Assembly: GCA_046160805.1 (NCBI GenBank)
Contig: JBJXHF010000057.1
Location: 43,432 to 107,431 of the forward strand
Source of the DNA: Pyrinomonadaceae bacterium
Lineage (GTDB): Bacteria; Acidobacteriota; Blastocatellia; Pyrinomonadales; Pyrinomonadaceae
DNA: 64,000 bases
Direction: 5' to 3'
In this document: positions 5,114 to 64,000 of the stretch, piece after piece
Layout: every line of letters starts with the position of its first letter
How positions within the stretch are numbered: position 1 is the first letter of the stretch
Program-made: the position numbers and the translations under genes
Notes under the pieces: model-generated
Seen by the model: the letters and a program-made list of their open reading frames with translations, nothing else
The model's database searches: none
Told to the model about the DNA's origin: nothing

Positions 5114-5195
5114 TTTTGCCCGCGAATTACGCGAAAAAACGCGAATAAGAAAAGATTATCTTATTCGCGTCTATTTGCGTAATTCGCGGGCAAAA
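5114..5195. repeat. Family-1 palindromic intergenic repeat (TTTGCCCGCGAAT..ACGCGAATAA arms)
   Basis: The outer stems tttgcccgcgaattacgc / gcgtaattcgcgggcaaa are perfect inverted repeats. Related copies lie at 57405-57489, 60919-60990 and 62808-62843 with 63287-63320. It sits just downstream of the nrdB stop. Confidence 0.9.
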
Positions 5196-8972: not shown

Positions 8973-9734
8973 TTAGTCCACCACTTGTTCGTCGTACGCA
9001 AAACGAACATTCTGGGGCAGTAATTTGGAATCTCTTTCGTAGAGAATGTCATGGTTGAGGTGAGTAAGGAAAGCACGCTTTGGCCGCAGGTTGGCGATGA
9101 TCTCGAGAGCTTCTTCAAGGCAAAGGTGCGTCGAGTGCGGTTTGATCCGAACGCAGTCGAGAACCAAAACGTCCAGATCGCGGAGGCCGTCCATAGAATC
9201 GGGTGGAATTACTTTTAGATCAGTTGCGTATGCAAAATCGTTAAAGCGGTAAGCAATTACGGGCAGCTTGCCGTGAATAACTTCAAGCGGCATTACTTCG
9301 ATGTCCTCGCCGATGCAAAATGGTGAACCGTGTTGAACTGTGTGCGGGATCAATTGCGGAAGTCCGCCGCCAAAATGTGTGGGCTCGAAAATATATTTAA
9401 AGATTCGTTTTAAATCGACCCAGGCTATGTCGTTCGCGTAAACCCCCATCGCCCCATGTCGAAAATTCAAAGGACGAATATCATCTAGACCAAAAACATG
9501 ATCGACATGGCAATGTGTAATGAGAACGGCGTCGAGATGATTAATTCTAGAGCGCAGAGCCTGTTGACGAAAATCAATCGAAGTATCGACGAGAATCTTC
9601 TTGTCGCAGTGTTCGATCAGGACTGAAACTCTCAGCCGCTTGTCTCGCGGATCGTCAGACAGGCACGTTTCACAGTCGCAACCGATCGACGGAACGCCGG
9701 TCGATGTGCCTGTGCCTAAAAAAGTGAGTTTCAT
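8973..9734 (-). CDS. MBL-fold metallo-hydrolase (PhnP-like)
   Basis: 253 aa. HCHVDH metallo-beta-lactamase motif plus an N-terminal GCDCETC cysteine cluster, as in PhnP-type phosphodiesterases. Confidence 0.8.
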   Translation of the reverse strand: MKLTFLGTGTSTGVPSIGCDCETCLSDDPRDKRLRVSVLIEHCDKKILVDTSIDFRQQALRSRINHLDAVLITHCHVDHVFGLDDIRPLNFRHGAMGVYANDIAWVDLKRIFKYIFEPTHFGGGLPQLIPHTVQHGSPFCIGEDIEVMPLEVIHGKLPVIAYRFNDFAYATDLKVIPPDSMDGLRDLDVLVLDCVRIKPHSTHLCLEEALEIIANLRPKRAFLTHLNHDILYERDSKLLPQNVRFAYDEQVVD

Positions 9735-9741
9735 AAAGCAA

Positions 9742-9825
9742 TTTTAACGCAGAGAACGCAAAGACCGCAGAGGAAGAAATTGATTTTAGCCTCCTCTGCG
9801 AACGTTACGATCTCTGCGTTAAAAA
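9742..9825. repeat. Family-2-like palindromic repeat (ACGCAGAGAACGCAAAGACCGCAGAGG arms)
   Basis: aacgcagaga...tctctgcgtt and cgcagagga...tcctctgcg form nested perfect stems. Each arm is built from tandem 8-9 nt words. The architecture matches the elements at 46816-46897 and 50438-50508. Confidence 0.85.
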
Positions 9826-10395
9826 CTATTTCTTACCTAAGATTTCGTCCCCGGAAAACTTCGTTGCGGCTTGAGCTTTTAGATTTTCTTCGGTAGCGCG
9901 AACGAGTTGAACATACTGCATTCGCAAATCGCCGAGAAGTCCGTCGAGCAAACGGCTTTCCTGCGGATGAAGATTGTTCTTTGTTTTTTCTTTTATCATA
10001 CCGAGGACATCGAGCCAATATTTGCCTGTTTCGAGATCGAGGCTTCGCTTGCCGGTTGCAGGATGTGGAACGGCACCAAGCGAAGCGGCAGCGTTAGTCG
10101 CCAAAGTCGAAAGAAAATTTACAAAACTCGCAGGATCATCGGCACCGGGAATTTCACTTTCTTCTGATAGGTTTTCCGGCTCTGTAGTTTCGCTGAGATC
10201 GTGCTCGTTCGCCTGAACTTGTTGTCTTGTTTGGTCCGTTGGTGATTCTTCTACCTGCGCAGCCTCAAGCACTACACCTTCTTTTACCGATCCATCCGAG
10301 TTGAACTTCCGTCTATCTGCGACTTTAAAACTTACCTCGTCCTGATTTTCGTCGTTACCAATCATATTTCTGAAATCCTGTCTCGATAGTAGCAT
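9826..10395 (-). CDS. DUF1844 domain protein
   Basis: The C-terminal half FVNFLSTLATNAAASLG...TGKRSLDLETGKYWLDVLGMIKEKTKNNL...LLGDLRMQY matches the DUF1844 pattern. The start is uncertain: the ORF extends to 10434 but would then overlap the divergent mazG, and Met codons at 10395 and 10365 are alternatives. Confidence 0.7.
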   Translation of the reverse strand: MLLSRQDFRNMIGNDENQDEVSFKVADRRKFNSDGSVKEGVVLEAAQVEESPTDQTRQQVQANEHDLSETTEPENLSEESEIPGADDPASFVNFLSTLATNAAASLGAVPHPATGKRSLDLETGKYWLDVLGMIKEKTKNNLHPQESRLLDGLLGDLRMQYVQLVRATEENLKAQAATKFSGDEILGKK

Positions 10396-13159: not shown

Positions 13160-13241
13160 ATTTTGACCTAAAATCAGATAACGGGCAGAAACGCGACTGT
13201 TAAGGAGCGTGCGGTCGGCCTAGCGTTCTTCTACGCCATCT

Positions 13242-13271
13242 GCACGCTCGTTCACACTCGCGTTTCCGCCC
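13242..13271. repeat. solo arm of the long-hairpin repeat seen at 33754-33829
   Basis: gcacgctcgttcacactcgcgtttccgccc is near-identical to the right arm at 33800-33829 (gcacgctcgtttacactcgcgtttccgccc). No intact left arm is adjacent. Confidence 0.8.
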
Positions 13272-13298
13272 GTTTGGTTGAATTTAGCAAAATTGGTT

Positions 13299-14349: not shown

Positions 14350-14380
14350 GGGCGCTTCGCTTCTCGCCCTTTTTGTTTTT
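14350..14380 (+). terminator. possible weak intrinsic terminator
   Basis: GGGCG-N10-CGCCC followed by TTTTTGTTTTT. The stem is short and the loop long, so this is marginal. Confidence 0.3.
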
Positions 14381-14381
14381 C

Positions 14382-14440
14382 TTTGCGGCCTTTGCTTCTT
14401 TGCGTGAAACTTTCTCCCGCAAAGACGCAAAGGTTGCCAA
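14382..14440. repeat. Family-2-like palindromic repeat (CGCAAAGACGCAAAGG words)
   Basis: ttgcggcctttgcttctttgcg / cgcaaagacgcaaaggttgccaa form an imperfect inverted repeat around a 12-nt loop. Confidence 0.75.
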
Positions 14441-14527
14441 GAGGAAGAGAAAACTTGCCAAATACGACGTCATTCTCGTGAGTGTGTCATACTTGATACA
14501 GCAACTTATTTCTGCTATCCTCGAACA

Positions 14528-15256: not shown

Positions 15257-16222
15257 TCAACTTGTTGCTTCCCACCGAACATTCCATTTGTCACTTATAT
15301 AGTTGTTGTTCAAATCTCTCGCCTGTGGAAGTCTAAAGTCATTTTCCTGCCAGAATTTTGGAATCGGATGGAATTGAGCCTTTACTACGTCGAAACTAAC
15401 ATCTCGACTATTTCGTTCGATAAAAAAATGTTCGGAGCGTCGTAATCCGGTTACCCAATCAAACACTCTAGTGCTCCACTGGTTATTTATTTGGAACCTA
15501 GCGTAGAAAAGCCGAGATTGGATGCCGATCGCATTGAGGGGAAGATCATTATCTTTTCGCTCAGCCTCATACAGCACTACCCGATCAACGTTATTTTCGA
15601 CTCTTTTCTTAATTGCTGCGGCTACCGTCTCAACCTCCTCCGCAAGTTTGAATAAATCGTAGTAGGCCTGAGCAGTACTTGTATGATGAGGCTGAGCCGT
15701 CGTGTCGGAAATTCTGCGGATGTAATTTGAATGTTTTTCTAACAGTTTGGACTTAGGTCCAAATGGCTGAAACAACGCGAGCGACAATCCGTTACTAACC
15801 GCCGATCCTACCAGTTCCGCCAGGTGAGGAATGGCAGAGAACTGTGGGCTGTTGTCCCGAAAGTCGATACAAAGAAGGGCATGCTCAGCGGATTCTAACA
15901 TGACGAAAAAATCCTCGATCGGCTTTAGTGCATCGCCGGGCGCCCGCGGCGTTGTTTTAGCGCTTCGCGTTTCTTCCTGAGCTCGTTCCAAACTCCCACG
16001 AATTTCGTTAGCGAAAGACTCGTCCAGATCTTTGAGAACTAGTGTGATCTTGTCAATAACTTCGTCGGATAAGCCCGAACGGCCGTTGCGCATTCGACTG
16101 AGATATGCGCCTGAAATTCCAAATTTATTGGCTAACGAACCGGAGGTTACGACATCGCTTGATTCAGCTCTTTCGACGAAAAAACCAAGGATTCTTAAAT
16201 AAACTTGCTCAAACGGAGACAT
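15257..16222 (-). CDS. HTH (XRE-like) domain protein with uncharacterised C-terminal domain
   Basis: The start is taken at the Met preceded by AGGA (ttAGGAtatATG). SLANKFGISGAYLSRMRNGRSGLSDEVIDKI is a helix-turn-helix. The remaining roughly 250 aa has no motif I recognise. The gene is low in GC. Confidence 0.65.
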   Translation of the reverse strand: MSPFEQVYLRILGFFVERAESSDVVTSGSLANKFGISGAYLSRMRNGRSGLSDEVIDKITLVLKDLDESFANEIRGSLERAQEETRSAKTTPRAPGDALKPIEDFFVMLESAEHALLCIDFRDNSPQFSAIPHLAELVGSAVSNGLSLALFQPFGPKSKLLEKHSNYIRRISDTTAQPHHTSTAQAYYDLFKLAEEVETVAAAIKKRVENNVDRVVLYEAERKDNDLPLNAIGIQSRLFYARFQINNQWSTRVFDWVTGLRRSEHFFIERNSRDVSFDVVKAQFHPIPKFWQENDFRLPQARDLNNNYISDKWNVRWEATS

Positions 16223-17377: not shown

Positions 17378-17530
17378 AAGTCCGCTTTGCGGGCGACAGA
17401 CCAACGGTAAAACATTAATTTGTAAGTGCCTACAGACTCTGTCGCCTGCAACGCGGGCTTAATTATTATCGGGCGCCGACTACACGCTCACGCGTGTAGC
17501 TTTACTTTTTCGTCCGCAATGCGGACTTTT
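17378..17530. repeat. composite hairpin-repeat cluster (modules shared with 40681-40895)
   Basis: Module TTGCGGGCGACAGA-N40-CTCTGTCGCCTGCAA is in the same orientation as at 40757-40820. Module CTACACGCTCACGCGTGTAGCTTTACTTTTTCGTCCGCAATGCGGACTT is the reverse complement of 40681-40729. Confidence 0.85.
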
Positions 17531-20287: not shown

Positions 20288-20290
20288 AAA

Positions 20291-20332
20291 TTGAGAACGG
20301 AGAATTGAGAACGGAGAATTGAGAACGGAGAA
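20291..20332 (+). repeat. 3 x 14-bp perfect tandem repeat TTGAGAACGGAGAA ending at the tamB start codon
   Basis: Units at 20291-20304, 20305-20318 and 20319-20332. Each carries GGAG. The last GGAG serves as the SD, and the final A is the first base of the tamB ATG. Confidence 0.9.
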
Positions 20333-23300
20333 TGCCGGAAGAAGAAATCGAAAAAACGGAACGCGAGGAACCGAAACGGCGTCGACGTTTTTTTACTCGG
20401 CGCAATACGATGATCGTCGCCGGGCTGGCTGCGGTGCTGATCGTTTTGCTCGGGCTTCTTTCGGTCGTTACTTATCGCTACGGCGTATATGACAATTATG
20501 TAAAGAATCAGTTCGTTGCGAAGATGGCGGACATTGGGATCGTTTTTAGCGCGGACGTTTTTCGCGTGACGGTTAATCCGCTTGAGCTTGAGCTGAAGAA
20601 CGCGACGTTTAACGACAAAGTGAGCGGCGAGAAGCTTTTTTTCATACGCGATGCGCGGCTCAGGATGAGCGTTACGAATTTGTATGCGTGGCAGTTGAGC
20701 CGTGACATCAGCATCGACAAAACCGAGATTACGGGTGCCGAGGCATGGGTAAAGTTTGACGAAAACGGGCGGTCGAATTTTTCAAATCTCAAGCTGGTCG
20801 AGGATGCGGCGGGAACACGCGTCAATTTTAAATACGACACGATCGATCTTTCGCTAACGGAAAGCATTGTGCATTTTGGCGATTTGTCGCGAAAGATTTC
20901 GGGCAATGCGAGGAATGTTTTGTTTCTGCTATCACCGGAAAATCGCAGCGTGCCGGACGAGCAGAAACGGTATAAGTTCGAGATCGCATCGACCGATTCT
21001 AATTTTGTTTATGATGAGAGCTCGATTGAAAATATCGATCTTCGTGTTGCCGGCATTGCCCATGATCGCGGTGCCGAGATCACAAACTTTGAACTGAGAA
21101 CGCCAATCGGCGAATCTACATTGACGGGGACGCTTGTTGATTGGGCCGCCCCGAGATACGAGTTTGATATTCAATCGACGGTCGATCTGACGCAGGCTTC
21201 GAGCATTTTGCCAATCGGAACTTCTCTTGTCGGTGTTGGCAATTTTAGAGGCAAGGTCACGGGCCAGGGCGAGACTTATCGCATAGAAGGCGAGGCCGAC
21301 GCGGCAAGTTTACGTGCCGACGGAGTTTTTCTAAAGGCCATCGATGTTACGGCGACGGTCGAGGGCACAAATTCGAATTACGAAGCGAACGGAACAGCCG
21401 TTGCGGAGATGTTGACGTTTGAGGATTTTCGCGTTGATTTTCTAAAGCTTGCGGGAAATGTTCGCGGGACGGGAACGGACTTTCGTTGGCTTGGCGATTT
21501 GCAGGCGGCGGCGGCGAAATCCAACAAGCTTTCGCTAGGCGGTTTGTTTCTTCGAGACGCGACGGCGGAATTCAGGGACAGAGAGCTGCGAGCCGAAGCT
21601 CGCAGCGGACGAGCACAGAAATTTTCGATCAAAGATATTGAGTTCACCGAGTTGCTGGCCGACAACCTGAAATTCTCGGCAATTGACGACACGATAAACT
21701 TGTCCGCGCCGGGCGCCCGGGCACGATCTTTTTCGTCGAAAGATTACAATCTGAAAAACATTGCCGGGCGAAACATACGCATCAAAAACCGTGGGAATGA
21801 AACGAACGTCGATATCAACGGCTTAACTGCGACTGGCGGAGAGATAAAAGGAGCGAAGGCTAGACGGGTGACGGCGGACACAGTGAGTGTCGTCGATCTG
21901 CCAAGAACGACCGGCGTTACGGCGAAGAATCTTCGCGTTGAACAGTTGGATGTAAACGGCGCGCGAGTTGACGGCGTAGAGGCGCCTTCGGTCGAGCTTG
22001 AGAATGTTACTGATGGTCCACTGACGATTTATTCGGACAAGGTGCGTGTTGCGAAGATTGACGCGGGCTCCGCTGTGCTCGGCAGTTTGAATATCGGCGG
22101 CGTTAGGCTGACCGTTCGGCAGGGCCGCGTTGAAGCGAGGTCCGACGACATCGACGCGGGCAACGTGACGCTCGCGAAAACACAAACTCTGCCCGACGGC
22201 GGCCAGCTTGAAGCCGTAAAAATCGTCAAGCCGGTTTATATTCTTGAACCTTCGGGACGCTACCGCGTGACAGCCGATATGAGCCTCGGCGGTGGAGCGG
22301 TTGGCAGCGTCGCGCTCGGCGCGGCTAAGGCGAAGGTCGAGGCGGACAACAACCGCGTCGCGCTCAACGAGCTTTCCGCCGACGTGATGGAAGGGCAGTT
22401 GAATGGCCGTGCTGTGATAGCTCTAAACAACCGCAGCTTGTCCACGCTTAACGGCGATTTTACAAATCTCGACATCGCAAAGATCATCGCGCTTTCTGGC
22501 GGCGGCATTACGCCGATCGAGGGACAGACAACAGGACGCGTCGATCTGACATTTGCGGGAACGAATTTTCGCAACGCTTCGGGTACTTTGAACGCAGATA
22601 TCACTGCCAACGCCGGCAATGCAGATAGCGGGCTGATACCGGTCAACGGCGAAGTGAGATTGAGTGCGACCAACGGTCTTTTCAACATCGATGTTGCCAA
22701 TCTCAGAACTGCTAACAGCTCGCTGACCGCAAACGGCCGTTTTGATCTAAAAGATCAAGACTCCAACCTCGCGTTCGCTTTGAGATCGACGGACGCGTCA
22801 GAGATTGATCGATTGATTCGCGTACTGAACGTATCTGATGAGCTTGAGAATCAACTCGATTCGATGCAGGTTGCGCTAGCCGGTAATCTGACGTTTGATG
22901 GTACGCTGACTGGAAATTTATCCGATCCGACGATTGATGGAAAGGCTTCGCTTGATTCGCTTCTCCTTCGCGGGCGAGAGATGGGCAGTGTTGCAACGGA
23001 CATATCGGTGTCGCCGATTGAGGTTAACCTGACGAACGGCAAGCTGCAGGACAGAAGCGGCGGAAGTGCGTTGTTTAGCGTCAATATTCCGAGAACCGGT
23101 ATAAACAACGTTGCGGTGAAAGCGACGCTTACGAATATTAACGCAGGTAATCTGCTCGCGGCTTTGCCGATAGAACTGCCGGAGAAGATTCGCGATCTCG
23201 ACGGACAAACATCGGGAATGGTAGATATTAGCGGCTTGCCGAACAGTGCGCAGGGTGCGGTCGATCTTTCCGCCGCAAGAGGCGTAATTGCGGGACAGGC

Positions 23301-28773: not shown

Positions 28774-28828
28774 AATTGAGAATTGAAAATTGAGAATCAG
28801 GAAAATTTCAATCTCCATTCTCCATTTT
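28774..28828. repeat. Family-3 palindromic repeat (GAGAAT/GGAGAAT words)
   Basis: aattgagaattgaaaattgagaat / atttcaatctccattctccattt form an imperfect inverted repeat directly after the bamA stop. The word content is related to the tandem repeat at 20291-20332. Confidence 0.75.
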
Positions 28829-29132: not shown

Positions 29133-29289
29133 AACTTTCCGAATATGACGCAACTTTCCGGATATGACGCAACTTTCTTAATTTGACGCAAGTTTCCGAA
29201 TATGGCGTAACTTGCCGATGTGATACAAAGAAGAACCCCGTCGCTACCGCTCCCGGTTCTGACAAGACGCAAGTTTCCGAATTTGACGT
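29133..29289 (+). repeat. iteron-like array: five contiguous 19-bp direct repeats plus a sixth copy
   Basis: Units start at 29133, 29152, 29171, 29190 and 29209 with consensus AACTTTCCGAATATGACGC. The fifth is degenerate. A sixth copy lies at 29271-29289. An inverted CGTCATAC lies at 29076-29083. Confidence 0.9.
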
Positions 29290-29345
29290 AGTTTTTCGGC
29301 CCTAAGCCGATTTTATCCCGCGTTAGCGGCGTACAGACTTTATGC

Positions 29346-33642: not shown

Positions 33643-33753
33643 GGCATCAGGCCTTTGACGACGACAGGTTTTGGCGGCGTTGACCTTTATTAAATTTCTT
33701 TATATTTCAAGTTAAGTGTATCGCCCTTGCTAAAGTGCGGGCTTTTGCAACGC

Positions 33754-33829
33754 GGGCGGAAACGTGAGTGTAAACGAGCGTGCACGCGCTAATGAAGCCG
33801 CACGCTCGTTTACACTCGCGTTTCCGCCC
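33754..33829. repeat. long hairpin repeat (30-nt arms, 16-nt loop)
   Basis: gggcggaaacgtgagtgtaaacgagcgtgc pairs with gcacgctcgtttacactcgcgtttccgccc, with one G-U position. A solo arm copy lies at 13242-13271. Confidence 0.9.
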
Positions 33830-33914
33830 GTACCTAAGCGCCTCAAATTGCCCGCGCAGGCTAGTTTTGGTATCTTAGAAAGTTGCTCAATAGTATAAAA
33901 ACAGGACGTATTTA

Positions 33915-38121: not shown

Positions 38122-38130
38122 GAGGATTAT

Positions 38131-38169
38131 TTTGCCACAGAGAGCACAGAGAACACAGAGAAGAAAAAA
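38131..38169. repeat. solo arm of Family-2 repeat (CCACAGAGAGCACAGAGAACACAGAG)
   Basis: Near-identical to the left arm at 46816-46845. No matching right arm is present. Confidence 0.85.
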
Positions 38170-38189
38170 GGGCAGCCGAAAGACTGCCC
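38163..38189 (-). terminator. intrinsic terminator downstream of the 38237-39835 gene
   Basis: The minus strand reads GGGCAG-TCTTTCGG-CTGCCC followed by TTTTTT. Confidence 0.7.
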
Positions 38190-40680: not shown

Positions 40681-40895
40681 AAGTCCGCTTCGCGGACGAA
40701 AGAGTAAAGCTATATGCGTAAGCATGTAGTCAGTTCGAAAAAATGTAAACAGCCCGTTTGCGGGCGACAGAGCTTTTGCCTACATTACAAATGTCTTGCA
40801 ATACCTCTGTCGCCTGCAAGCAGGCTGTGACTGTCTTTCCGGTTACTCCACGCTTACGCGTGGAGCTAAATTCTACTGCCCGCAAACGGGCTAAA
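40681..40895. repeat. composite hairpin-repeat cluster (modules shared with 17378-17530)
   Basis: Contains AAGTCCGCTTCGCGGAC..GTAAAGCTATATGCGTAAGCATGTAG, GCCCGTTTGCGGGCGACAGA-N40-CTCTGTCGCCTGCAAGCAGGC, CTCCACGCTTACGCGTGGAG and GCCCGCAAACGGGC hairpins. Confidence 0.85.
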
Positions 40896-44551: not shown

Positions 44552-46852
44552 ATGAAAAAAACGCTTATCGCCGCGACGTTTATTCTTATTTGCGTCTCTC
44601 TTGCCCATGCTCAACTCACAACGGAAACGCTTGTAAAGATCGTAAAAGCCGAAGACGCACGCGGTTATGATAATACGCTTGAAGATCTGCTGCGTTCACC
44701 CGATCCTAAGGTTCGTAAACGCGCGGCGCTGGCTGTGGGCCGCATCGGCGATGAGAAAGCTGTAAGCGCATTGGCCGCGTTGTTGATCGACGATAAGTCC
44801 ATTGATGTGCGCGCGATGGCCGCTTTTGCTCTCGGTGAGATCGAATCGGTCAAAGGCGCCGATGCGATTTTGAAAGTTTTGAACAATGCGACAACGCCCG
44901 CAGCCGTGCGTGCTCGCGCCGTCGAAGCAGCAGGCAAAATAGCTGCTGCAAATCCAAAATCGGCAGAATCAAAAAGTCTCAGCGAAGCGATTCTCCAAAC
45001 GTTGGATGAGCAAAACCGGCGAAACGCAAGACGCGACCGCGACACGGCGATTCTTGGATTAACTGCCGCCGCACGCTCTGCGAGTACCGATGCAAAACGG
45101 CGGCGTCCAGACGACACTGATTTTATCACGGCAGAATTCCTGAAAAGCGCGGACGCGCGAATCCGCGCCGACGCGGCGAACACACTTACACGGCTCCGCG
45201 CGGGAAACGCAAACGCGATCTTACGAAAGATTCTCACATCGGACGCGAACCCTATTGCACGCGCAAACGCAGCCAGAGCACTTGGGGCGGCGGCGGACGG
45301 TAAAGCATTTGATCAGCTTGTCAAAAGTGCGACGGAAGACGTTGATTCGCGAGTGCGCGTGTCGGCAATGTCGGCGCTTGGCAGCCTGAAGAATGCGAAG
45401 GCTGCAGACAAGCTGACAGAGCGCGGTGAAAAACTTCTCACGCTTTACAAAACGTCGAAATTTGATCATCCGGCCGAGAAAAATGAGCTGATACAAATCG
45501 TGACGATTTTGGGCAGGCTGATTCCCGATACCGCTAACGAGCGGACGGTTAAATTTCTCGATGAGCTTGTCAGGCTCGACGATGGACGCACGCCTGAGAT
45601 TTCCGTGGCGCGGATGCGGGTTAAGCCTGGCGATTTTACGATCTCGCCGACGGCGTTAAGAACATCGTGGGGTTTAAGCACAACGGCGCAGGTTGCGGGC
45701 GAGCTTGCCGCGATGTTTCCAAAAACAGCGGAAGTGCAAAAAATGCGCAGCGCGGCTCCGGCACTTCTGCGGCGAATGGCTGACAGGCTGTCAACATCTT
45801 ACACAATAGTGGCTCCGGCACGGTTTACAGAGACGGGCGAAATACTGCCTACGACTTACTCGGATGAAGACAAGAGAAATCTCCTAGCCGCTCCGTATTT
45901 TATCCGCGCTTTTGCCGCGTTTAAGACAAAAGACCTGGACGTTTTTTTGCGTATGCGGCTTGCAAATAAAGACGTATTTGTCCGCACCGCAGCGGCGGAA
46001 CTCATGGTGGAACGTCCTGCCTTAAAGGAAAATGTTGCTGCGCTGAAGAGGGCTTTTGAATATGCTCATACAACAGATAAAGAGTATAACGACGCGCGGC
46101 TTGCCATAATGGACGCCCTCTTTAAGCAAGACAAAAAGGAAGCAGCCAAAATTCTTCCGACTGCGTTGAACTCGGCCGATTACCTCACGCGAAAGAAGGC
46201 GATTGATCTGCTCTCGGACAGTGAACTGCAAAAGCAATCGCCGGACGCTGTACCGATAGTGGAAAGGGCACTTGCCAAACGCAGCAACCGCGTTTTGCCC
46301 TACACCGCTGCATACGCAACAAAGCTCGGGCAGATGATGAGCACCAAAGACGATTATCTCCGCGCGGTTTCGCGTAGAAACGGCACGGTCAAGGCAATTC
46401 TCAAAACTGAAAAGGGAACGTTTACTATTGATTTCTATCCTGAGGATGCTCCGCTGACTGTTGATAATTTTATAAAGCTCGCGAAAGAAAATTACTTCGA
46501 CGGAGTCGAGGTTCATCGCGTCGTTCCCAATTTTGTAATGCAGGACGGCGATCAGCGCGGTGACGGCAACGGCGGGCCGGGCTGGTCGATACGCTGCGAG
46601 ATAAATATGCGCCCCTATGATCGCGGCGCGGTCGGCATGGCTCTTTCGGGCAAAGACACGGGCGGTTCGCAATGGTTTGTAACACATTCTCCGCAGCCGC
46701 ATCTCGACGGCGGCTATACCGTCTTCGGCCACGTGAACGAAATCGGCATGAAAGTCGTAGATAATATCGTGCGCGGCGATAAAATTATCAGCGTGAAAAT
46801 TGTCGAGATGAATTCGCCACAGAGAGCACAGAGAACTCAGAGGAAGAAATAG
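44552..46852 (+). CDS. HEAT-repeat protein fused to a cyclophilin-type peptidyl-prolyl isomerase
   Basis: Signal-like N-terminus. Multiple HEAT/PBS-lyase-like repeats (DPKVRKRAALAVGRIGDEKAV, DVRAMAAFALGEI, DARIRADAANTL, DSRVRVSAMSALG). C-terminal cyclophilin domain (FYPEDAPLTVDNF..FDG..VHRVVPNFVMQDGD..GDGNGGPG...GAVGMA...GGSQWF). The last 12 codons lie inside the repeat at 46816-46897. Confidence 0.85.
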   Translation: MKKTLIAATFILICVSLAHAQLTTETLVKIVKAEDARGYDNTLEDLLRSPDPKVRKRAALAVGRIGDEKAVSALAALLIDDKSIDVRAMAAFALGEIESVKGADAILKVLNNATTPAAVRARAVEAAGKIAAANPKSAESKSLSEAILQTLDEQNRRNARRDRDTAILGLTAAARSASTDAKRRRPDDTDFITAEFLKSADARIRADAANTLTRLRAGNANAILRKILTSDANPIARANAARALGAAADGKAFDQLVKSATEDVDSRVRVSAMSALGSLKNAKAADKLTERGEKLLTLYKTSKFDHPAEKNELIQIVTILGRLIPDTANERTVKFLDELVRLDDGRTPEISVARMRVKPGDFTISPTALRTSWGLSTTAQVAGELAAMFPKTAEVQKMRSAAPALLRRMADRLSTSYTIVAPARFTETGEILPTTYSDEDKRNLLAAPYFIRAFAAFKTKDLDVFLRMRLANKDVFVRTAAAELMVERPALKENVAALKRAFEYAHTTDKEYNDARLAIMDALFKQDKKEAAKILPTALNSADYLTRKKAIDLLSDSELQKQSPDAVPIVERALAKRSNRVLPYTAAYATKLGQMMSTKDDYLRAVSRRNGTVKAILKTEKGTFTIDFYPEDAPLTVDNFIKLAKENYFDGVEVHRVVPNFVMQDGDQRGDGNGGPGWSIRCEINMRPYDRGAVGMALSGKDTGGSQWFVTHSPQPHLDGGYTVFGHVNEIGMKVVDNIVRGDKIISVKIVEMNSPQRAQRTQRKK

Positions 46853-46897
46853 AATTATTTATCTCTCGGTGCGCTCTGTGTTCTCTGTGGCAAAAAA
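46816..46897. repeat. Family-2 palindromic repeat (CCACAGAGAGCACAGAGAAC arms)
   Basis: ccacagagagcacagagaactcagagg / ctctcggtgcgctctgtgttctctgtgg form an imperfect inverted repeat. Related copies at 38131-38169 and 50438-50508. Confidence 0.9.
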
Positions 46898-50417: not shown

Positions 50418-50437
50418 TTTTTTTTCTCCTTTTATTT

Positions 50438-50508
50438 TCACCACAAAGACACAAAGAACACAAAGATAATGCAAGAAGAACTTCTTTATGCCCTTCGTGT
50501 CTTTGTGG
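50438..50508. repeat. Family-2 variant palindromic repeat (CCACAAAGACACAAAGAACACAAAG arms)
   Basis: The left arm caccacaaagacacaaagaacacaaag and the partial right arm cgtgtctttgtgg lie between perR and ahpC. Confidence 0.8.
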
Positions 50509-50913
50509 TTAATCTTCTTTGCAGTCAGGGCAGATGCCCTTCAAAGTAAACTCCAATGACTTAAACTTGAATTTTGACGCTTTGACCGCGCGTTTGACAA
50601 GCTTCGGCGAGTGTTTGATCTCGATATCCACGAGCGCGTCGCACTTTACGCAAATAGCGTGATCGTGTCGAGAGGTCATTCGATCGAACCGGCTCGCGCC
50701 GTTGCCAAAATGCACCTCCGCGATATGGCCCGCGTTTTTCAAAAAACGCAGGCTGTTATAAACCGTCGCAAAACTGATGCTCGGCAGCAACGCTTTTGCC
50801 TGCGCAAAAACTTCGTTCGCCGTCAGATGGTCCTCGGCCACACGGATAACCTTCAAAACGACTGCTCGCTGCTTAGTCAGTCCTAAATCCTGGATACCAG
50901 TGGAAGCCTTCAT
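50509..50913 (-). CDS. perR: Fur family transcriptional regulator, PerR-like by context
   Basis: 134 aa. Winged-helix (ATVYNSLRFL), HDH motif (SRHDHAICVKCD) and a C-terminal CPDC zinc site. Located directly upstream of ahpC-katG. Confidence 0.8.
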   Translation of the reverse strand: MKASTGIQDLGLTKQRAVVLKVIRVAEDHLTANEVFAQAKALLPSISFATVYNSLRFLKNAGHIAEVHFGNGASRFDRMTSRHDHAICVKCDALVDIEIKHSPKLVKRAVKASKFKFKSLEFTLKGICPDCKED

Positions 50914-56838: not shown

Positions 56839-57447
56839 GTGGATATTCTAGTCGCTCGCACAGAGAACGAAATCGACTTTGCATTTGAACGGCTTTCAAC
56901 GGCCGCTTTCTTAGGCTGCGACACCGAAACATCCGGCTTCGGCGCCCGCAGCGGAAAGCTTTATTCAGTGCAGTTTTCCGATGGCATTTTTAATGTTCTC
57001 GTGCCCGTTAGCGAAAGCGTCGCGCTTGGTCGCCTCGCGGAAATTCTCTGGGATAACTCGATAAGAAAAATATTTCACAATGCCAAATTCGATCTGGAAT
57101 TTTTGAACGAGAATGGATATGCGGCTGAGAATATTTTCGACACGATGATCGCCGAAAGGGTTCTCACGCGCGGCGCGAATCAATCCGCGTCGCTCGCCGA
57201 AACGCTCTACCGCTATTTCGCCGTCGATCTCGACAAATCACAGCGTGCAAAATTCACGCGCAACTGGAACGGCGTCTGGACTGATGAACTGGTAAATTAC
57301 GCGCTGTCAGACGTCGCGCATTTGCCGCGCCTGATGTCGGAGCAAGTCAGTTGGCTTGAAAAGCTGGGTTTAAATGAAGAGTTTGAGTCTCAGTTAGGAA
57401 GAATTTTTTTGCCCACGAATAACGCGAATAATACGAATAAGATTTGA
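56839..57447 (+). CDS. 3'-5' exonuclease domain protein (RNase D / DEDDy-like)
   Basis: GCDTETSG (ExoI), HNAKFDLEFL (ExoII) and YALSDVAHL (ExoIII). GTG start. The last 14 codons (FLPTNNANNTNKI) lie within the Family-1 repeat. Confidence 0.8.
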   Translation: MDILVARTENEIDFAFERLSTAAFLGCDTETSGFGARSGKLYSVQFSDGIFNVLVPVSESVALGRLAEILWDNSIRKIFHNAKFDLEFLNENGYAAENIFDTMIAERVLTRGANQSASLAETLYRYFAVDLDKSQRAKFTRNWNGVWTDELVNYALSDVAHLPRLMSEQVSWLEKLGLNEEFESQLGRIFLPTNNANNTNKI

Positions 57448-57489
57448 TTTCTTTTAATTCGTTGAATTCGTGTTATTCGCGGGCAAAAA
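57405..57489. repeat. Family-1 palindromic repeat
   Basis: tttttgcccacgaataacgcgaataatacgaataag ... attcgtgttattcgcgggcaaaaa. Lies between convergent genes. Confidence 0.9.
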
Positions 57490-57963: not shown

Positions 57964-57970
57964 AATCTCC

Positions 57971-58051
57971 GGAATAAGTTAAAAGTGATAGGTAATAAGT
58001 GAGAAGTCATAACGCACGCACTTATAACTTATCACTTTTCACTTATTACGG
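57971..58051. repeat. Family-4 palindromic repeat (GTAATAAGTGAGAAGT words)
   Basis: ggtaataagtgagaagtcataa / ttataacttatcacttttcacttattacc-like arms around acgcacgcac. Confidence 0.8.
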
Positions 58052-58106
58052 AGCTTGCTGTCGGCAAGCTAAGTAGCGTAAATTTAATCGGCACCTTGTA
58101 AATATT

Positions 58107-60868: not shown

Positions 60869-60918
60869 ACTACTTCGTTCCTACGATAAAATAGAGAGAA
60901 TTGTTCGTCAAATAAGAA

Positions 60919-60990
60919 TTTTGCCCGCGAATAACGCGAATAATACGAATAAAAAGTAATTTCCTTAATTCGCGTTATTCGCGGGCAAAA
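60919..60990. repeat. Family-1 palindromic repeat
   Basis: attttgcccgcgaataacgcgaataatacgaataaaaa ... aattcgcgttattcgcgggcaaaa. Directly downstream of the aspS stop. Confidence 0.9.
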
Positions 60991-60993
60991 TTC

Positions 60994-62802
60994 TTACTCG
61001 TTAATATTAATTCCCAATTCCTTCAACTGCGACGCGTCCACCTCGCCCGGCGAGTCCATCATCAGGTCCTGTGCCGAAGCTGTTTTTGGAAATGCAATAA
61101 AGTCGCGGATATTTTCGTTCTGCAACAGAGACATCAGCGTTCGCTCGATGCCGGCGGCAAAGCCGCCGTGCGGCGGCGTGCCGTATTCGAGAGCTTCGAG
61201 GAAAAACCCAAAGCGTTCTCGCGCCATTTCCGGCGTTAATCCAAGCGCTTTGAAATTCAACGCCTGTACGTCACGCTGATGAATCCGGATCGAACCGCCT
61301 GCGACCTCAATGCCATTGATTACTGCATCGTAAGCTTTTGCGCGAACACCTCCGAGTAATTCACGCTCACCGGTTTCGACTGCCTGTTTAAACACTTCTA
61401 AATCCTCGTCCATAGGCGATGTGAACGGATGATGCGCCGCGTCGTAGTGATTTTCAGCTTCGTTGTATTCAAACATCGGAAAGTCAATGACCATCAACGG
61501 CTTAAAAACGTCTCGTGCGATAAGATTCTCTCGTCTTCCAATTTCCAAACGCAACGCGCCGAGGCTTGCTGCGACAACCGATTTGCGTCCTGCAACGATC
61601 AAAACGGCGTCGCCCTTTTCGGCGTTCGCAACCGAAGCAAGCTGTTTGACCTTTGATTCGCCGAGCACTTTCATCAACGACGAACTCGTCTCGTCATGGC
61701 CCATCTTTATCCACGCAAGCGCGCCTGCTCCATAGCGTTTGACAAATTCCTGTAACTCGTCAAGCTGTTTTCGTGAATAGTCTGCCTTGCCTTTGACGAC
61801 GATGCACCTTATCTGGCCGTTCGCTTTGAGCGTATCGGCGAAAGGAGCAAAATCCGTATCGCGAAGCTCGTCGCTCAAGTCGATCAATTCCATTTCAAAC
61901 CGCAGATCGGGCTTGTCCGAACCATACCGACTCAACGCATCGGCGTGTGTCATTCGCGGAAACTGTTCCGGCAGATCAACATCGATCAGCTTGAAGATAT
62001 GGCGGAACGTACCCTCGATCGTTCGATAAACCATCTCCTGATTTGCGAACGACATCTCGACATCAAGCTGAGTAAATTCCGGCTGTCGGTCGGCCCTCAG
62101 GTCTTCGTCGCGAAAGCAGCGGGCGATCTGATAATACTTGTCAAAACCCGAGATCATCGTTAACTGTTTCAATATCTGCGGCGACTGCGGCAGCGCAAAA
62201 AACTTGCCCGAATGAATGCGCGAAGGCACGATAAAGTCTCTCGCGCCTTCGGGTGTCGATTTGAGCAAAATGGGCGTTTCGATCTCGATAAAACCTCGCG
62301 AATCCATATACTCGCGAATGCGCCCGACGACTTTTGCCCTCGTGCGTATGTTGTATTGCAATTGCGACCGGCGCAGATCGAGATAGCGATACTTAAGCCG
62401 CGTCGATTCATCGGCGAGATTTTCCGAACCCGCAACCTCAAGCTGAAACGGCGGCACTTTAGCGTCGTTTAGAACGAGAATCTCGCTTGCCTTTACTTCG
62501 ATATCACCAGTCGCAAGTTTTGCGTTGTGTGTGCCTTCGGAGCGCAAAACAACCTCGCCTTTCACCGCAATAACAAATTCGCCGCGAAGATTTTTTGCTT
62601 TCTGATGTGCTTCCGGAGCGGTCTCTTCGCTTACAACAACCTGCGTCAACCCGTCACGGTCGCGCAGATCGACAAACGTAAAAACGCCAAAATCACGCTT
62701 CTTCGCAACCCAACCCATCAGCACAACCTGCTTGCCCGCATCCGCCTCGCGCAGCTCGCCGCAGGTGTGAGTTCTCTCTAAGCTTCCTAAAGTATCTAGC
62801 AT
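60994..62802 (-). CDS. aspS: aspartate--tRNA ligase
   Basis: 602 aa. N-terminal OB fold, class II motifs (FRDEDLRADRQPEFTQLD, GGSIRIH, PPHGGFAAGIER) and the bacterial insertion domain. Confidence 0.95.
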   Translation of the reverse strand: MLDTLGSLERTHTCGELREADAGKQVVLMGWVAKKRDFGVFTFVDLRDRDGLTQVVVSEETAPEAHQKAKNLRGEFVIAVKGEVVLRSEGTHNAKLATGDIEVKASEILVLNDAKVPPFQLEVAGSENLADESTRLKYRYLDLRRSQLQYNIRTRAKVVGRIREYMDSRGFIEIETPILLKSTPEGARDFIVPSRIHSGKFFALPQSPQILKQLTMISGFDKYYQIARCFRDEDLRADRQPEFTQLDVEMSFANQEMVYRTIEGTFRHIFKLIDVDLPEQFPRMTHADALSRYGSDKPDLRFEMELIDLSDELRDTDFAPFADTLKANGQIRCIVVKGKADYSRKQLDELQEFVKRYGAGALAWIKMGHDETSSSLMKVLGESKVKQLASVANAEKGDAVLIVAGRKSVVAASLGALRLEIGRRENLIARDVFKPLMVIDFPMFEYNEAENHYDAAHHPFTSPMDEDLEVFKQAVETGERELLGGVRAKAYDAVINGIEVAGGSIRIHQRDVQALNFKALGLTPEMARERFGFFLEALEYGTPPHGGFAAGIERTLMSLLQNENIRDFIAFPKTASAQDLMMDSPGEVDASQLKELGININE

Positions 62803-62807
62803 AAGAA

Positions 62808-62843
62808 TTTTTGCCCGCGAATAACGCGAATAGCACGAATAAA
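62808..62843. repeat. Family-1 repeat, left arm flanking the GxxExxY gene
   Basis: tttttgcccgcgaataacgcgaatagcacgaataa. Its reverse-complement partner is at 63287-63320. Confidence 0.9.
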
Positions 62844-62846
62844 AAA

Positions 62847-63281
62847 TCAGAAATTTTGACGATTTCCAAGTACTTCATAGTATGAAGCGGATTCGTTGCG
62901 GCGGTTACAAACCAGCCGTTCATATACAAGTTTTGGGAATTGACCAAAATTTACTAACAGCCCCAATTCAAATTGAGTAGCATGTAAATAATTCAATGTT
63001 TGTGCTCTATGAGCGTCGGTTAGGCACGCAACAGCTTTGAGCTCAACCACAATTTTTTCAAAGTAAATAAAATCTGGCTTAAAAGTATGCCCAAGCTGTA
63101 TGCCTTTGTACATCAAAGGAAGTTCCGGCTGCGAAATGAACGGAATGTTTTGAATCAGAAACTCATGCTGTAAGCATTCTTGATAGATAGGCTCGGTAAA
63201 TCCGAACCCTTTTTGGTTACAAACCTCAAAGCATGCTCCCATTAGAATGTAACTCTCATCCTTGTAGAGTATTTCGGCCAT
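62847..63281 (-). CDS. GxxExxY family protein (PD-(D/E)XK-like fold family)
   Basis: MAEILYKDESYILMGACFEVCNQKGFGFTEPIYQECL... carries the G-x-x-E-x-x-Y-type N-terminal motif. DFIYFEKIVVELKA fits a D...E.K nuclease-like core. The start is taken at 63281; the longer ORF reads into the repeat arm. Confidence 0.8.
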   Translation of the reverse strand: MAEILYKDESYILMGACFEVCNQKGFGFTEPIYQECLQHEFLIQNIPFISQPELPLMYKGIQLGHTFKPDFIYFEKIVVELKAVACLTDAHRAQTLNYLHATQFELGLLVNFGQFPKLVYERLVCNRRNESASYYEVLGNRQNF

Positions 63282-63286
63282 CTCTT

Positions 63287-63320
63287 TATTCGTTTTATTC
63301 GCGCTATTCGTGGGCAAAAA
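63287..63320. repeat. Family-1 repeat, right arm flanking the GxxExxY gene
   Basis: The reverse complement of ttattcgttttattcgcgctattcgtgggcaaaaa is ttgcccacgaatagcgcgaataaaacgaataa, matching the left arm at 62808-62843. Confidence 0.9.
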
Positions 63321-63358
63321 ATAAAAAACGCCTTTCGATTTGGACATAACGAAAGGCG
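63316..63358 (-). terminator. intrinsic terminator downstream of cdsA
   Basis: The minus strand reads CGCCTTTCG-N12-CGAAAGGCG followed by TTTTTTATTTTTT. Confidence 0.7.
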
Positions 63359-63421
63359 GCACGCTAATCATTAACGCACACGCCAGTCAATTATTGTCAT
63401 TAAACCGAATAAAGGCGTCCA

Positions 63422-64000
63422 TCAAACCACGAAATAAATCCTTGCAAAATAATACAGTAGCGGCGCGCCGAAAAGCAAACTATCTAGGCGGTCGAGAAAG
63501 CCGCCGTGGCCGGGCAGAATGCTTGCCGCGTCCTTCATTTTTGAGCCGCGTTTCATTGAGCTCTCGGCCAGGTCGCCGAGCACGCCGACAGCCGCCAATA
63601 TGATTGCGAGCGGTATCGAAAATTGAAGCGGCAATTCAGGAAAGAAAGTTAATGTAGCAATGGCTGCGAATGCGGATGCAAAAACAAGCCCTCCGATGAG
63701 ACCTTCAACGGTTTTGCCGGGCGAGATCACGGAAGCTAGCTTGTGTTTGCCAAATGCCCGGCCAAACAAATAAGCGCCGATGTCCGAAGCAAATGTTACG
63801 CAGAAGAAATAACCGAGCAATTTCGTTGACAGGCCGGGCTGATTTTCAAAACCTACTCTCATCGCAACCAAAAATCCGCCGAGAAATGCGACATAAATAA
63901 TTCCGAGCATCGTCACCCCGATGCCGGTCAGCATCTTGGAAAAATCTTTCTGGAAACGAAATGTCTGCGAGATTAAAACAACTATAACAGTCAATGCGAG
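63422..64000 (-). CDS. cdsA: phosphatidate cytidylyltransferase, 5' end probably beyond the window
   Basis: Polytopic membrane protein with C-terminal SSMKRGSKMKDASILPGHGGFLDRLDSLLF, the CdsA signature. The ORF is open to the window end. Confidence 0.88.
   Translation of the reverse strand, partial: LALTVIVVLISQTFRFQKDFSKMLTGIGVTMLGIIYVAFLGGFLVAMRVGFENQPGLSTKLLGYFFCVTFASDIGAYLFGRAFGKHKLASVISPGKTVEGLIGGLVFASAFAAIATLTFFPELPLQFSIPLAIILAAVGVLGDLAESSMKRGSKMKDAASILPGHGGFLDRLDSLLFGAPLLYYFARIYFVV

Follow-up and report, generated by a model that had tools for sequence, protein, structure and literature searches.

A GxxExxY nuclease-family gene between inverted arms of a dispersed hairpin repeat forms a horizontally exchanged unit in the aspS leader of a Pyrinomonadaceae bacterium

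A 64,000-nt stretch of a Pyrinomonadaceae (Acidobacteriota) metagenome-assembled genome (contig JBJXHF010000057.1, positions 43,432–107,431; hereafter the window) carries a small GxxExxY (PDDEXK_3) gene enclosed by two inverted arms of a palindromic repeat, here called Family 1. Arm, open reading frame (ORF) and arm come and go jointly as a single, precisely bounded unit, the cassette, which lies directly upstream of aspS. Blastocatellia lineages exchange the cassette horizontally at this one site, irrespective of the host gene beside it. Arm and nuclease sequences diverge together, protein and arms are both under purifying selection, and arm complementarity is kept by changes on both sides, without strand (G·U) asymmetry. 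Relatives from other phyla have the same architecture inside other operons. The finding is real and generalises. The pairing of nuclease and arms is not described in the searchable literature, where GxxExxY/PDDEXK_3 is nowhere tied to repeats like the repetitive extragenic palindromes (REPs), as the original prediction had supposed. We see an about even chance that the cassette is a site-specific selfish element whose arms are functionally tied to its nuclease and whose relatives include the ORF-less hairpins.

On the minus strand, features are ordered cdsA (63994..63422), a terminator-like hairpin with a T-run (CGCCTTTCG-N12-CGAAAGGCG; 63358..63316), the 5′ arm (63320..63285), the ORF (63281..62847), the 3′ arm (62843..62808), aspS (62802..60994) and a compact hairpin (60996..60913). 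The arms, located by a repeat search of the window, are 36 nt long, 89% complementary and 441 nt apart; the right arm first proposed at 63287–63320, with a 443-bp spacer, is essentially the same. In gene orientation the 5′ arm reads TTTTTGCCCACGAATAGCGCGAATAAAACGAATAAA, with three 9-nt CRCGAATAR units, and orthologous cassette arms are kept in 25 loci. Each arm is built of three tandem 9-nt units (CGCGAATAA, CGCGAATAG and CACGAATAA), and the arm ends are TTTTGCCCGCG and CGCGGGCAAAA. The gene was identified from the ORF list and hidden Markov model scores and encodes 144 aa; 3 nt separate its stop codon from the left arm, and 3–5 nt its ATG from the right arm. The 3′ arm is complementary to the 5′ arm. 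It ends 5 nt ahead of, and so adjoins, the ATG of aspS, the host gene for aspartate--tRNA ligase, which lies downstream in the same orientation. Alignment with the empty sites of close relatives defines the complete insertion or deletion unit as arm, ORF, arm and AAAAATTCT (62803..63320, minus strand).

Family 1 also occurs in the window as three compact, unstranded, ORF-less hairpins. One lies directly after the aspS stop codon (60913..60996, first given as 60919–60990), one between convergent exonuclease-domain and 4HBT-like genes (57405..57489) and one with two co-oriented genes on either side (5114..5195). A search with a 31-nt arm pattern, allowing three mismatches at most, gave two matches in the window and none in 100 shuffles. 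A looser scan of the 64 kb found exactly eight arm-like stretches, six in the three compact hairpins and two forming the split pair around the gene. Because all eight belong to one or the other, the window contains no solo arms, and chance does not explain the arrangement. One copy in the window bears an ORF.

Bracketing by inverted arms extends through the family and is no accident of this locus, because tight flanking arms (score ≥30) were found at 58 of 79 related loci and at 1 of 696 shifted control intervals. The scan took one genome per species and returned 80 loci with relatives 54–74% identical. Their hosts are Acidobacteriota, Verrucomicrobiota, Planctomycetota, Kiritimatiellia, Lentisphaerae and Desulfobulbaceae and represent at least five phyla. 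Arms mostly begin 0–16 nt from the start and stop codons of the GxxExxY gene. When flanks were widened to 140 nt, 61 of 78 loci had inverted arms; 43 of these are pure split hairpins of the window type, and in six the gene lies between two complete hairpins. One arm kind, GCCCGCGAAWNACGCGAAW... with 9-nt CRCGAAW units, is found even between phyla. Distant paralogs (about 29–47% identity) are likewise bracketed by arms of other units, namely CGCAGAGA in locus L128, CACAGAGA/CACGGAGA at the second gene of L044, CACAGAGA in Bernardetia, and CACGGAT in L117 and in Treponema, whose arms are only 16 nt. Bernardetia has arms around the gene and zero further copies in 40 kb. In Gemmatirosa, a CGCGGAT hairpin lies just downstream of the gene and a flanking arm pair was not found. 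Two paralogs sharing one contig carry different arm families (L044, L157). Several of these unit types also form hairpins without a gene in the window (9742–9824, 38125–38170, 46807–46894 and 50437–50512). Bracketing of paralogs, the check suggested from the window, holds among both close and distant relatives.

These counts bear on one alternative, a coincidence in which independent host REP-like hairpins passively received an unrelated small gene inside one hairpin or between two. The six loci with a gene between complete hairpins fit it, as do solo arms and nested palindromes in metagenomes, where loops take other inserts. It is nevertheless very improbable given 58 of 79 loci against 1 of 696 controls, arms about 0–16 nt from start and stop codons in most loci, empty sites that miss arms and gene together, and an arm type that follows the protein lineage. 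Close homologues lie mostly on very short contigs (0.5–3 kb), and Logan contig L001 begins 115 nt upstream of the gene. Such contigs suggest that assemblies break at these repeats, and counts of cassettes and hairpins in metagenome-assembled genomes are thus probably underestimates.

Cassette neighbours are housekeeping or operon genes, including aspS, nuoL, recQ, molybdoenzyme subunits, wzt, alr and degT. The downstream neighbour is co-oriented with the cassette in 68 of 78 loci and both neighbours are in 55 of 70. Verrucomicrobial cassettes occupy the nuoK–nuoL junction.

The ORF product matches TIGR04256 GxxExxY at 124.9 bits (cut-off 35) and PF13366 PDDEXK_3 at 121.9 bits (cut-off 22), and these were its only Pfam and NCBIfam matches. 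G27, E30, D70, E80, K82, Q94 and Y98 are invariant in 32 aligned sequences and Y33 is nearly so. The catalytic core, D70 and E80-x-K82 with Q94-x-x-x-Y98, is intact in the window protein. QxxxY is the motif of RecB, Cas4 and lambda exonuclease. The nearest folds to an AlphaFold model (predicted local distance difference test score 81.5) are Cas4 SSO0001, lambda exonuclease and RecE, with template-modelling scores of about 0.5. The initial assignment to GxxExxY and the PD-(D/E)XK fold is borne out by scores, core and fold neighbours. PADLOC returned a weak Cas4b match only, and therefore no recognised defence system. Motifs, fold neighbours and the Cas4b match would point, though not strongly, to a DNA nuclease. 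A sequence search of solved structures and a search of PHROGs gave no match. The PF13366/TIGR04256 family has 10,720 cluster representatives at 50% identity, and a survey of PD-(D/E)XK proteins lists the PF13366 family as "unknown" (PMC3424549).

A GxxExxY gene lies directly upstream of aspS in 27 species representatives, a shared position that at first resembled vertical inheritance. Five close relatives by aspartyl-tRNA synthetase (AspRS) were chosen independently of the cassette (L215, L217, L218, L219 and L220). The site is empty in three of them: L215 and L217, each with 91% AspRS identity, and L219, with 85%. The leader hairpin with its T-run directly meets the aspS ATG in L215 and L217, and in L219 an 18-nt spacer lies between; the empty site reads GGCGTTTTTATTTTTATGCTGGAT. 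Because the leader hairpin meets the aspS start in these relatives, the cassette is placed within the aspS leader. Occupied and empty sites align with a single clean indel of about 515 nt, comprising arm, ORF and arm. L218 has a degenerate GxxExxY copy (9545–9978), seen as two high-scoring segment pairs in different frames, for which a 5′ arm was not found. L220 has an intact cassette with GAAA-type arms. Upstream of the degenerate copy, L218 has a glycoside hydrolase gene where others have cdsA.

Empty and occupied genomes interleave in a neighbour-joining tree of AspRS (no bootstrap), and AspRS and GxxExxY identities over 325 genome pairs give a Spearman rho of −0.006. GxxExxY proteins of one arm type (GAAT or GAAA) share 71.1% identity and those of different types 62.7% (0 of 2000 permutations), against 83.4% and 83.5% for the adjacent AspRS. 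The link between arm type and protein is confined to comparisons among lineages at one site. Indel, tree, identity and arm-type data together indicate that arm and ORF travel together and diverge together, independently of a gene 5 nt away. The proposal that arms and gene form one unit is supported by this co-divergence and by their joint absence from empty sites.

The original prediction had suggested a pairing like that of REPs and REP-associated tyrosine transposases (RAYTs). In REP/RAYT systems the gene is bracketed by an inverted dispersed repeat and expressed by read-through, and paralogs go with different repeat families (PMC3733652). The flanking of the gene by a dispersed repeat is shared with the cassette; vertical, domesticated inheritance is not, given the rho of −0.006 and the interleaved empty sites. 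A nuclease domesticated in the manner of a RAYT would be retained by the host and would create, spread or maintain REPIN-like hairpins serving mRNA stability or termination. Flanking by inverted copies of a dispersed repeat, strong purifying selection on the protein, occupancy of the same site in 27 species representatives, compact hairpins that come and go at orthologous sites, extra arm copies resembling the genome's own cassette arms, and paralogs with different arm families on one contig all agree with it. We regard it as unlikely, since the cassette is not inherited alongside the neighbouring host gene, is missing in three of five close relatives, one of which retains hairpins, surrounds its gene in Bernardetia with arms that have no other copy in 40 kb, and encodes an enzyme of a class other than the HUH class of RAYTs.

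Constraint on the arms was compared with that on the gene in 25 aspS-site cassettes. Mean pairwise identity is 72% in the arms, 38% at third codon positions and 76.5% at positions 1+2; the arms thus evolve about as slowly as non-synonymous sites, and the protein is under strong purifying selection. Pairing was tested in the outer 19 nt of the arms of 22 aspS-site cassettes. Own arm pairs are 96.2% Watson–Crick, against 88.5% when partner arms were shuffled among loci (0 of 1000 reach the observed value), and at least 2 Watson–Crick pair types occur in 9 of 19 arm columns. Mismatches are strand-symmetric (51 G·U vs 58 A·C, counted on the sense strand), unlike the usual pattern of an RNA stem under selection. 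As arm sequence and pairing are both constrained, sequence-specific recognition at the DNA level fits better than a mere RNase III stem. In predicted RNA folds, a long-range stem is present in the minimum-free-energy and centroid structures (z = −6.5) and spans the AAAGAG/ATG region, and the arms may have a role in RNA, possibly alongside one in DNA.

An element like the intervening sequences (IVSs) of 23S rRNA is another alternative. In it the arms would act in RNA: they would form a 36-bp stem in host mRNA, and RNase III would cut out or silence the ORF, leaving the insertion without harm. The nuclease, as a homing enzyme, would cleave the vacant genomic site instead of the arms, and the hairpins would be ORF-less versions comparable with short Salmonella IVSs. 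The Coxiella 23S IVS is built alike, with tandem GACAGAT heptamers (three to four copies) in the stem, an ORF in the loop and excision by RNase III (PMC4990558). ORF-bearing 23S IVSs are regarded as selfish and horizontally acquired, ORF-less versions exist, and the documented ORF family is the S23p, four-helix-bundle family PF05635 (PMC4990558). GxxExxY genes had earlier been suggested to lie often inside 23S IVSs; this is not upheld by the documented ORF family, and no 16S or 23S rRNA motifs were found in the 203 fetched loci.

The gene-in-stem resemblance itself is real, because PF05635 genes are also bracketed by periodic inverted repeats, and the rRNA location is the part that did not hold. 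Six PF05635 genes ("23S rRNA intervening sequence protein", a four-helix bundle) occur in the fetched loci, none in rRNA. Inverted repeats of short tandem units flank three, tightly in L184 (1481–1867) and L123 (9177–9533, next gene atpG-like by eye) and 70–80 nt from the ORF in L163 (8982–9515). The others, in L038 (994–1479), L055 (959–1396) and L075 (1488–1844), have short weak repeat matches only. The next gene is nuoI by eye in L038 and L055, and in these two loci the PF05635 gene shares an operon region with the nuoK/nuoL GxxExxY cassette. In Verrucomicrobia a PF05635 gene stands a few genes upstream of the cassette, just before a gene with a NuoI-like start (by eye).

For arms acting in RNA there is the predicted long-range stem covering AAAGAG/ATG (z = −6.5), the shared build of the Coxiella IVS and the PF05635 genes, co-orientation in 68 of 78 loci with operon location (nuoK/nuoL, aspS leader) and arms abutting neighbouring stop and start codons, and a set of occupied, empty and degenerate alleles with horizontal spread that fits a homing cycle. 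Yet G·U is not in excess over A·C on the transcribed strand (51 vs 58), and arm type co-diverges with the protein. The arm sequence itself is conserved across phyla at a non-synonymous-like rate, which pairing for RNase III would not need, and there is hardly a reason to excise one more cistron from an mRNA operon. We judge this alternative doubtful, though the nearest competitor.

The reading that we prefer, a selfish cassette with arms tied to its nuclease, can be set out as a sequence of conditional steps. The cassette would have inserted in the aspS leader, after the terminator-like hairpin and T-run and ahead of the start of aspS, in the direction of that gene. The arms would be DNA sites or ends recognised by the Cas4/RecB-like nuclease as a hairpin, a cruciform or two inverted half-sites for an oligomer, and this recognition would underlie insertion or spread of the unit. 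Compact ORF-less hairpins could be non-autonomous relatives, in the manner of REPINs or miniature inverted-repeat transposable elements (MITEs), or targets of the same activity. Expression would come by read-through from the host leader or operon, for which the co-oriented downstream neighbour in 68 of 78 loci was counted; a promoter scan of the 5′ arm gave nothing convincing. A long-range stem over the AAAGAG ribosome-binding region would hold translation low.

Several observations weigh against these steps. That the nuclease binds or cuts the arms is something we infer. The PF05635 family shares the architecture, and the arms may therefore belong to a vehicle mobilised from elsewhere. The left junction reads ATTTTT(T) and the right one ATTCTT/ATTTTT, but both lie in T/A runs that also extend the palindrome. 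This is weak evidence, and there is no clear target-site duplication. The exact protein P0085 was found on 19 contigs, all in one context and 99–100% identical, and recent multi-site transposition was not seen; recent transposition of the ORF was rejected on this single genomic context. Across phyla within the subfamily, arm unit type and protein identity are unlinked. Gene-bearing loci were retrieved by way of the gene, which biases estimates of occupancy. No partner could be detected for about a third of the arm matches in metagenome contigs. The relation of hairpins to the local cassette is mixed in six close relatives: L217 lacks an aspS cassette yet has two hairpins, and L220 has a cassette and zero hairpins. 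The relation between hairpins and nuclease is the least secure part of the account.

The post-aspS hairpin is present in the window genome and L217, degenerate in L004, L005 and L027, and missing in about 20 further syntenic genomes. L217 carries a hairpin of a CACGAAT variant at each of the two orthologous sites, and L215 has none. Extra arm copies near cassettes (49 candidate arms) match best the same genome's cassette arm in 9 of 15 loci. Viewed from the arms, 80 metagenome loci with an exact 19-mer hold about 34 arm matches in compact hairpins and three that bracket a GxxExxY gene; several arms enclose nested palindromes. Compact hairpins were rejected as intrinsic terminators; whichever strand is read, the stem comes after the T-run and before the A-run, and a consensus scan showed no excess. 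In an Rfam search of the surroundings of the locus, the compact hairpin matched only generic miRNA-precursor models below threshold, and nothing in the whole window reached the gathering score.

The site that separates the 4HBT-like gene from the exonuclease gene is orthologous in three genomes (window 57405–57489; L217 15355–15420; L215 about 15575–15590). There the hairpin-free L215 (site B) keeps GAATTTTTTGCA, identical to the outer palindrome end in the window genome and L217. This stretch is either a deletion scar or a preferred target. In L117 (2643–2855), and also in L120, L133, L136 and L147 and in L098, L113 and L109, Family-1-type arms surround 161–234 nt of non-coding DNA that forms a strong palindrome in its own right (RNA fold z = −6.1); the 161-nt insert of L117 has no Rfam match. 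Such nested hairpin-in-hairpin elements suggest that the palindrome centre receives other inserts. Solo left arms (CACGGAT, CGCGAAT, CACGAAA) stand in tandem in one orientation in L090 (about 2575–2800), L143, L153, L154 and L158, with no partner arm within reach. Such arrays may derive from nested or truncated elements, as their outer halves.

Each known system shares part of this build. Like REP/RAYT (REPtrons, and TIRYT/TIRtrons), the cassette gene is flanked by inverted copies of a repeat also dispersed as short hairpins, three in 64 kb, and different GxxExxY paralogs go with different repeat families. The enzyme, however, is a PD-(D/E)XK Cas4/RecB-like protein and not an HUH Y1 (IS200/IS605-like) tyrosine transposase. 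REPs have GTAG or CGTC tags, and CGTC REPs "lack a dedicated transposase" (PMC3733652); cassette arms lack these tags and are built from three 9-nt tandem units. RAYTs are inherited vertically and immobile, whereas the cassette is exchanged horizontally and often absent. Like ORF-bearing 23S IVSs (Coxiella, Leptospira), the cassette has a small ORF in the loop of a long stem with tandem short repeats, and the PF05635 genes in the fetched loci share this bracketed build. Unlike them, it lies in mRNA leaders and operon junctions and not in 23S helix 25 or 45, its ORF is PF13366 and not S23p/PF05635, and its arm mismatches lack an RNA signature.

Homing endonuclease genes are matched by the small nuclease ORF, the one conserved host site, the occupied, empty and degenerate alleles, and a phylogeny incongruent with the host. 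PD-(D/E)XK homing enzymes exist, for example I-Ssp6803I. To our knowledge, homing genes, unlike the cassette, lack flanking inverted arms of their own and dispersed ORF-less hairpin relatives. Pairs of insertion sequences and MITEs resemble the cassette in their terminal inverted repeats around one ORF and in short ORF-less palindromic relatives in intergenic DNA; the cassette differs in having no known transposase family and an ORF-bearing copy that is single and site-specific, not multi-copy. Integron cassettes with attC sites are similar in pairing a promoterless small ORF with an imperfect palindrome exchanged as a unit. At most cassette loci, however, the palindrome is split, with one half to either side of the ORF, instead of a whole attC following it, and the attC reading was rejected on this architecture (43 half-arm loci vs 6 complete-hairpin loci). 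There is also no cassette array, the unit lies inside housekeeping operons, and the RYYYAAC/GTTRRRY core was not seen, by eye only. In its workings the cassette resembles a hybrid of REP/RAYT (dispersed-repeat arms), rRNA IVS (ORF in a long periodic stem, inside highly expressed transcripts) and homing gene (occupied, empty and degenerate alleles and horizontal spread). It fails one defining feature of each: the REP/RAYT enzyme class, the rRNA location of IVSs and the absence of own arms in homing genes.

A broader interpretation, possible but tentative, is that GxxExxY (PF13366) nucleases and periodic arms form an undescribed class of bacterial mobile element in which a minimal Cas4/RecB-like nuclease recognises its own palindromic ends. 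Such an element would colonise leaders and junctions of highly expressed operons and seed ORF-less hairpin families throughout the genome. On this view the classical ORF-bearing 23S IVSs would be a branch of this vehicle that resides in rRNA. How rRNA IVSs arose and move has been an open question since about 1990 (PMC4990558). The pairing ties a large family of unstudied proteins (PF13366/TIGR04256) to widespread DNA hairpin repeats, and many palindromic repeat families have no known dedicated enzyme. It is also concrete, with one small nuclease, one 36-nt arm sequence, one defined empty site, and natural occupied, empty and degenerate alleles to compare. Should the nuclease act on the arms, the REP/RAYT paradigm would gain a second enzyme class, and a compact sequence- or structure-specific DNA nuclease could result.

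The aspS upstream leader is conserved (window 63329–63425, minus strand; L215 9896–10000; L217 9880–10000; L219 9876–10000). It consists of TTGACGACAATAATACGTnAGGCGAGAGCG followed by the terminator-like hairpin and T-run, and in cassette-free relatives it ends at, or up to 18 nt from, the aspS ATG. The leader has no Rfam match and looks like a transcription-attenuation leader for aspS.

The window contains at least five further intergenic hairpin families (9742–9824; 38125–38170; 46807–46894; 50437–50512; 14370–14452; 57964–58056). Their arms are tandem units of the 9-nt type (CGCAGAGAA, CACAGAGAR, CACAAAGA, CTTTGCG, AAGTGATAG...), and all are gene-less. Two of the unit types match arms of distant GxxExxY paralogs (L128, the second gene of L044, and Bernardetia). 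Two tandem arrays were also found. One (29133–29298) has a 19-nt period, AACTTTCCGAATATGACGC, in four or five copies; the other (20289–20344) has a 14-nt period, AATTGAGAACGGAG, in three copies, with a related stretch at 28774. Two non-periodic palindromic families with 31–51-nt arms, unrelated to Family 1, are dispersed 20 kb apart, at 13180–13274 and 33753–33830 and at 17378–17528 and 40681–40828 (CGGGCGGAAACGYGAGTGT...; AAGTCCGC...GACAGAG...).

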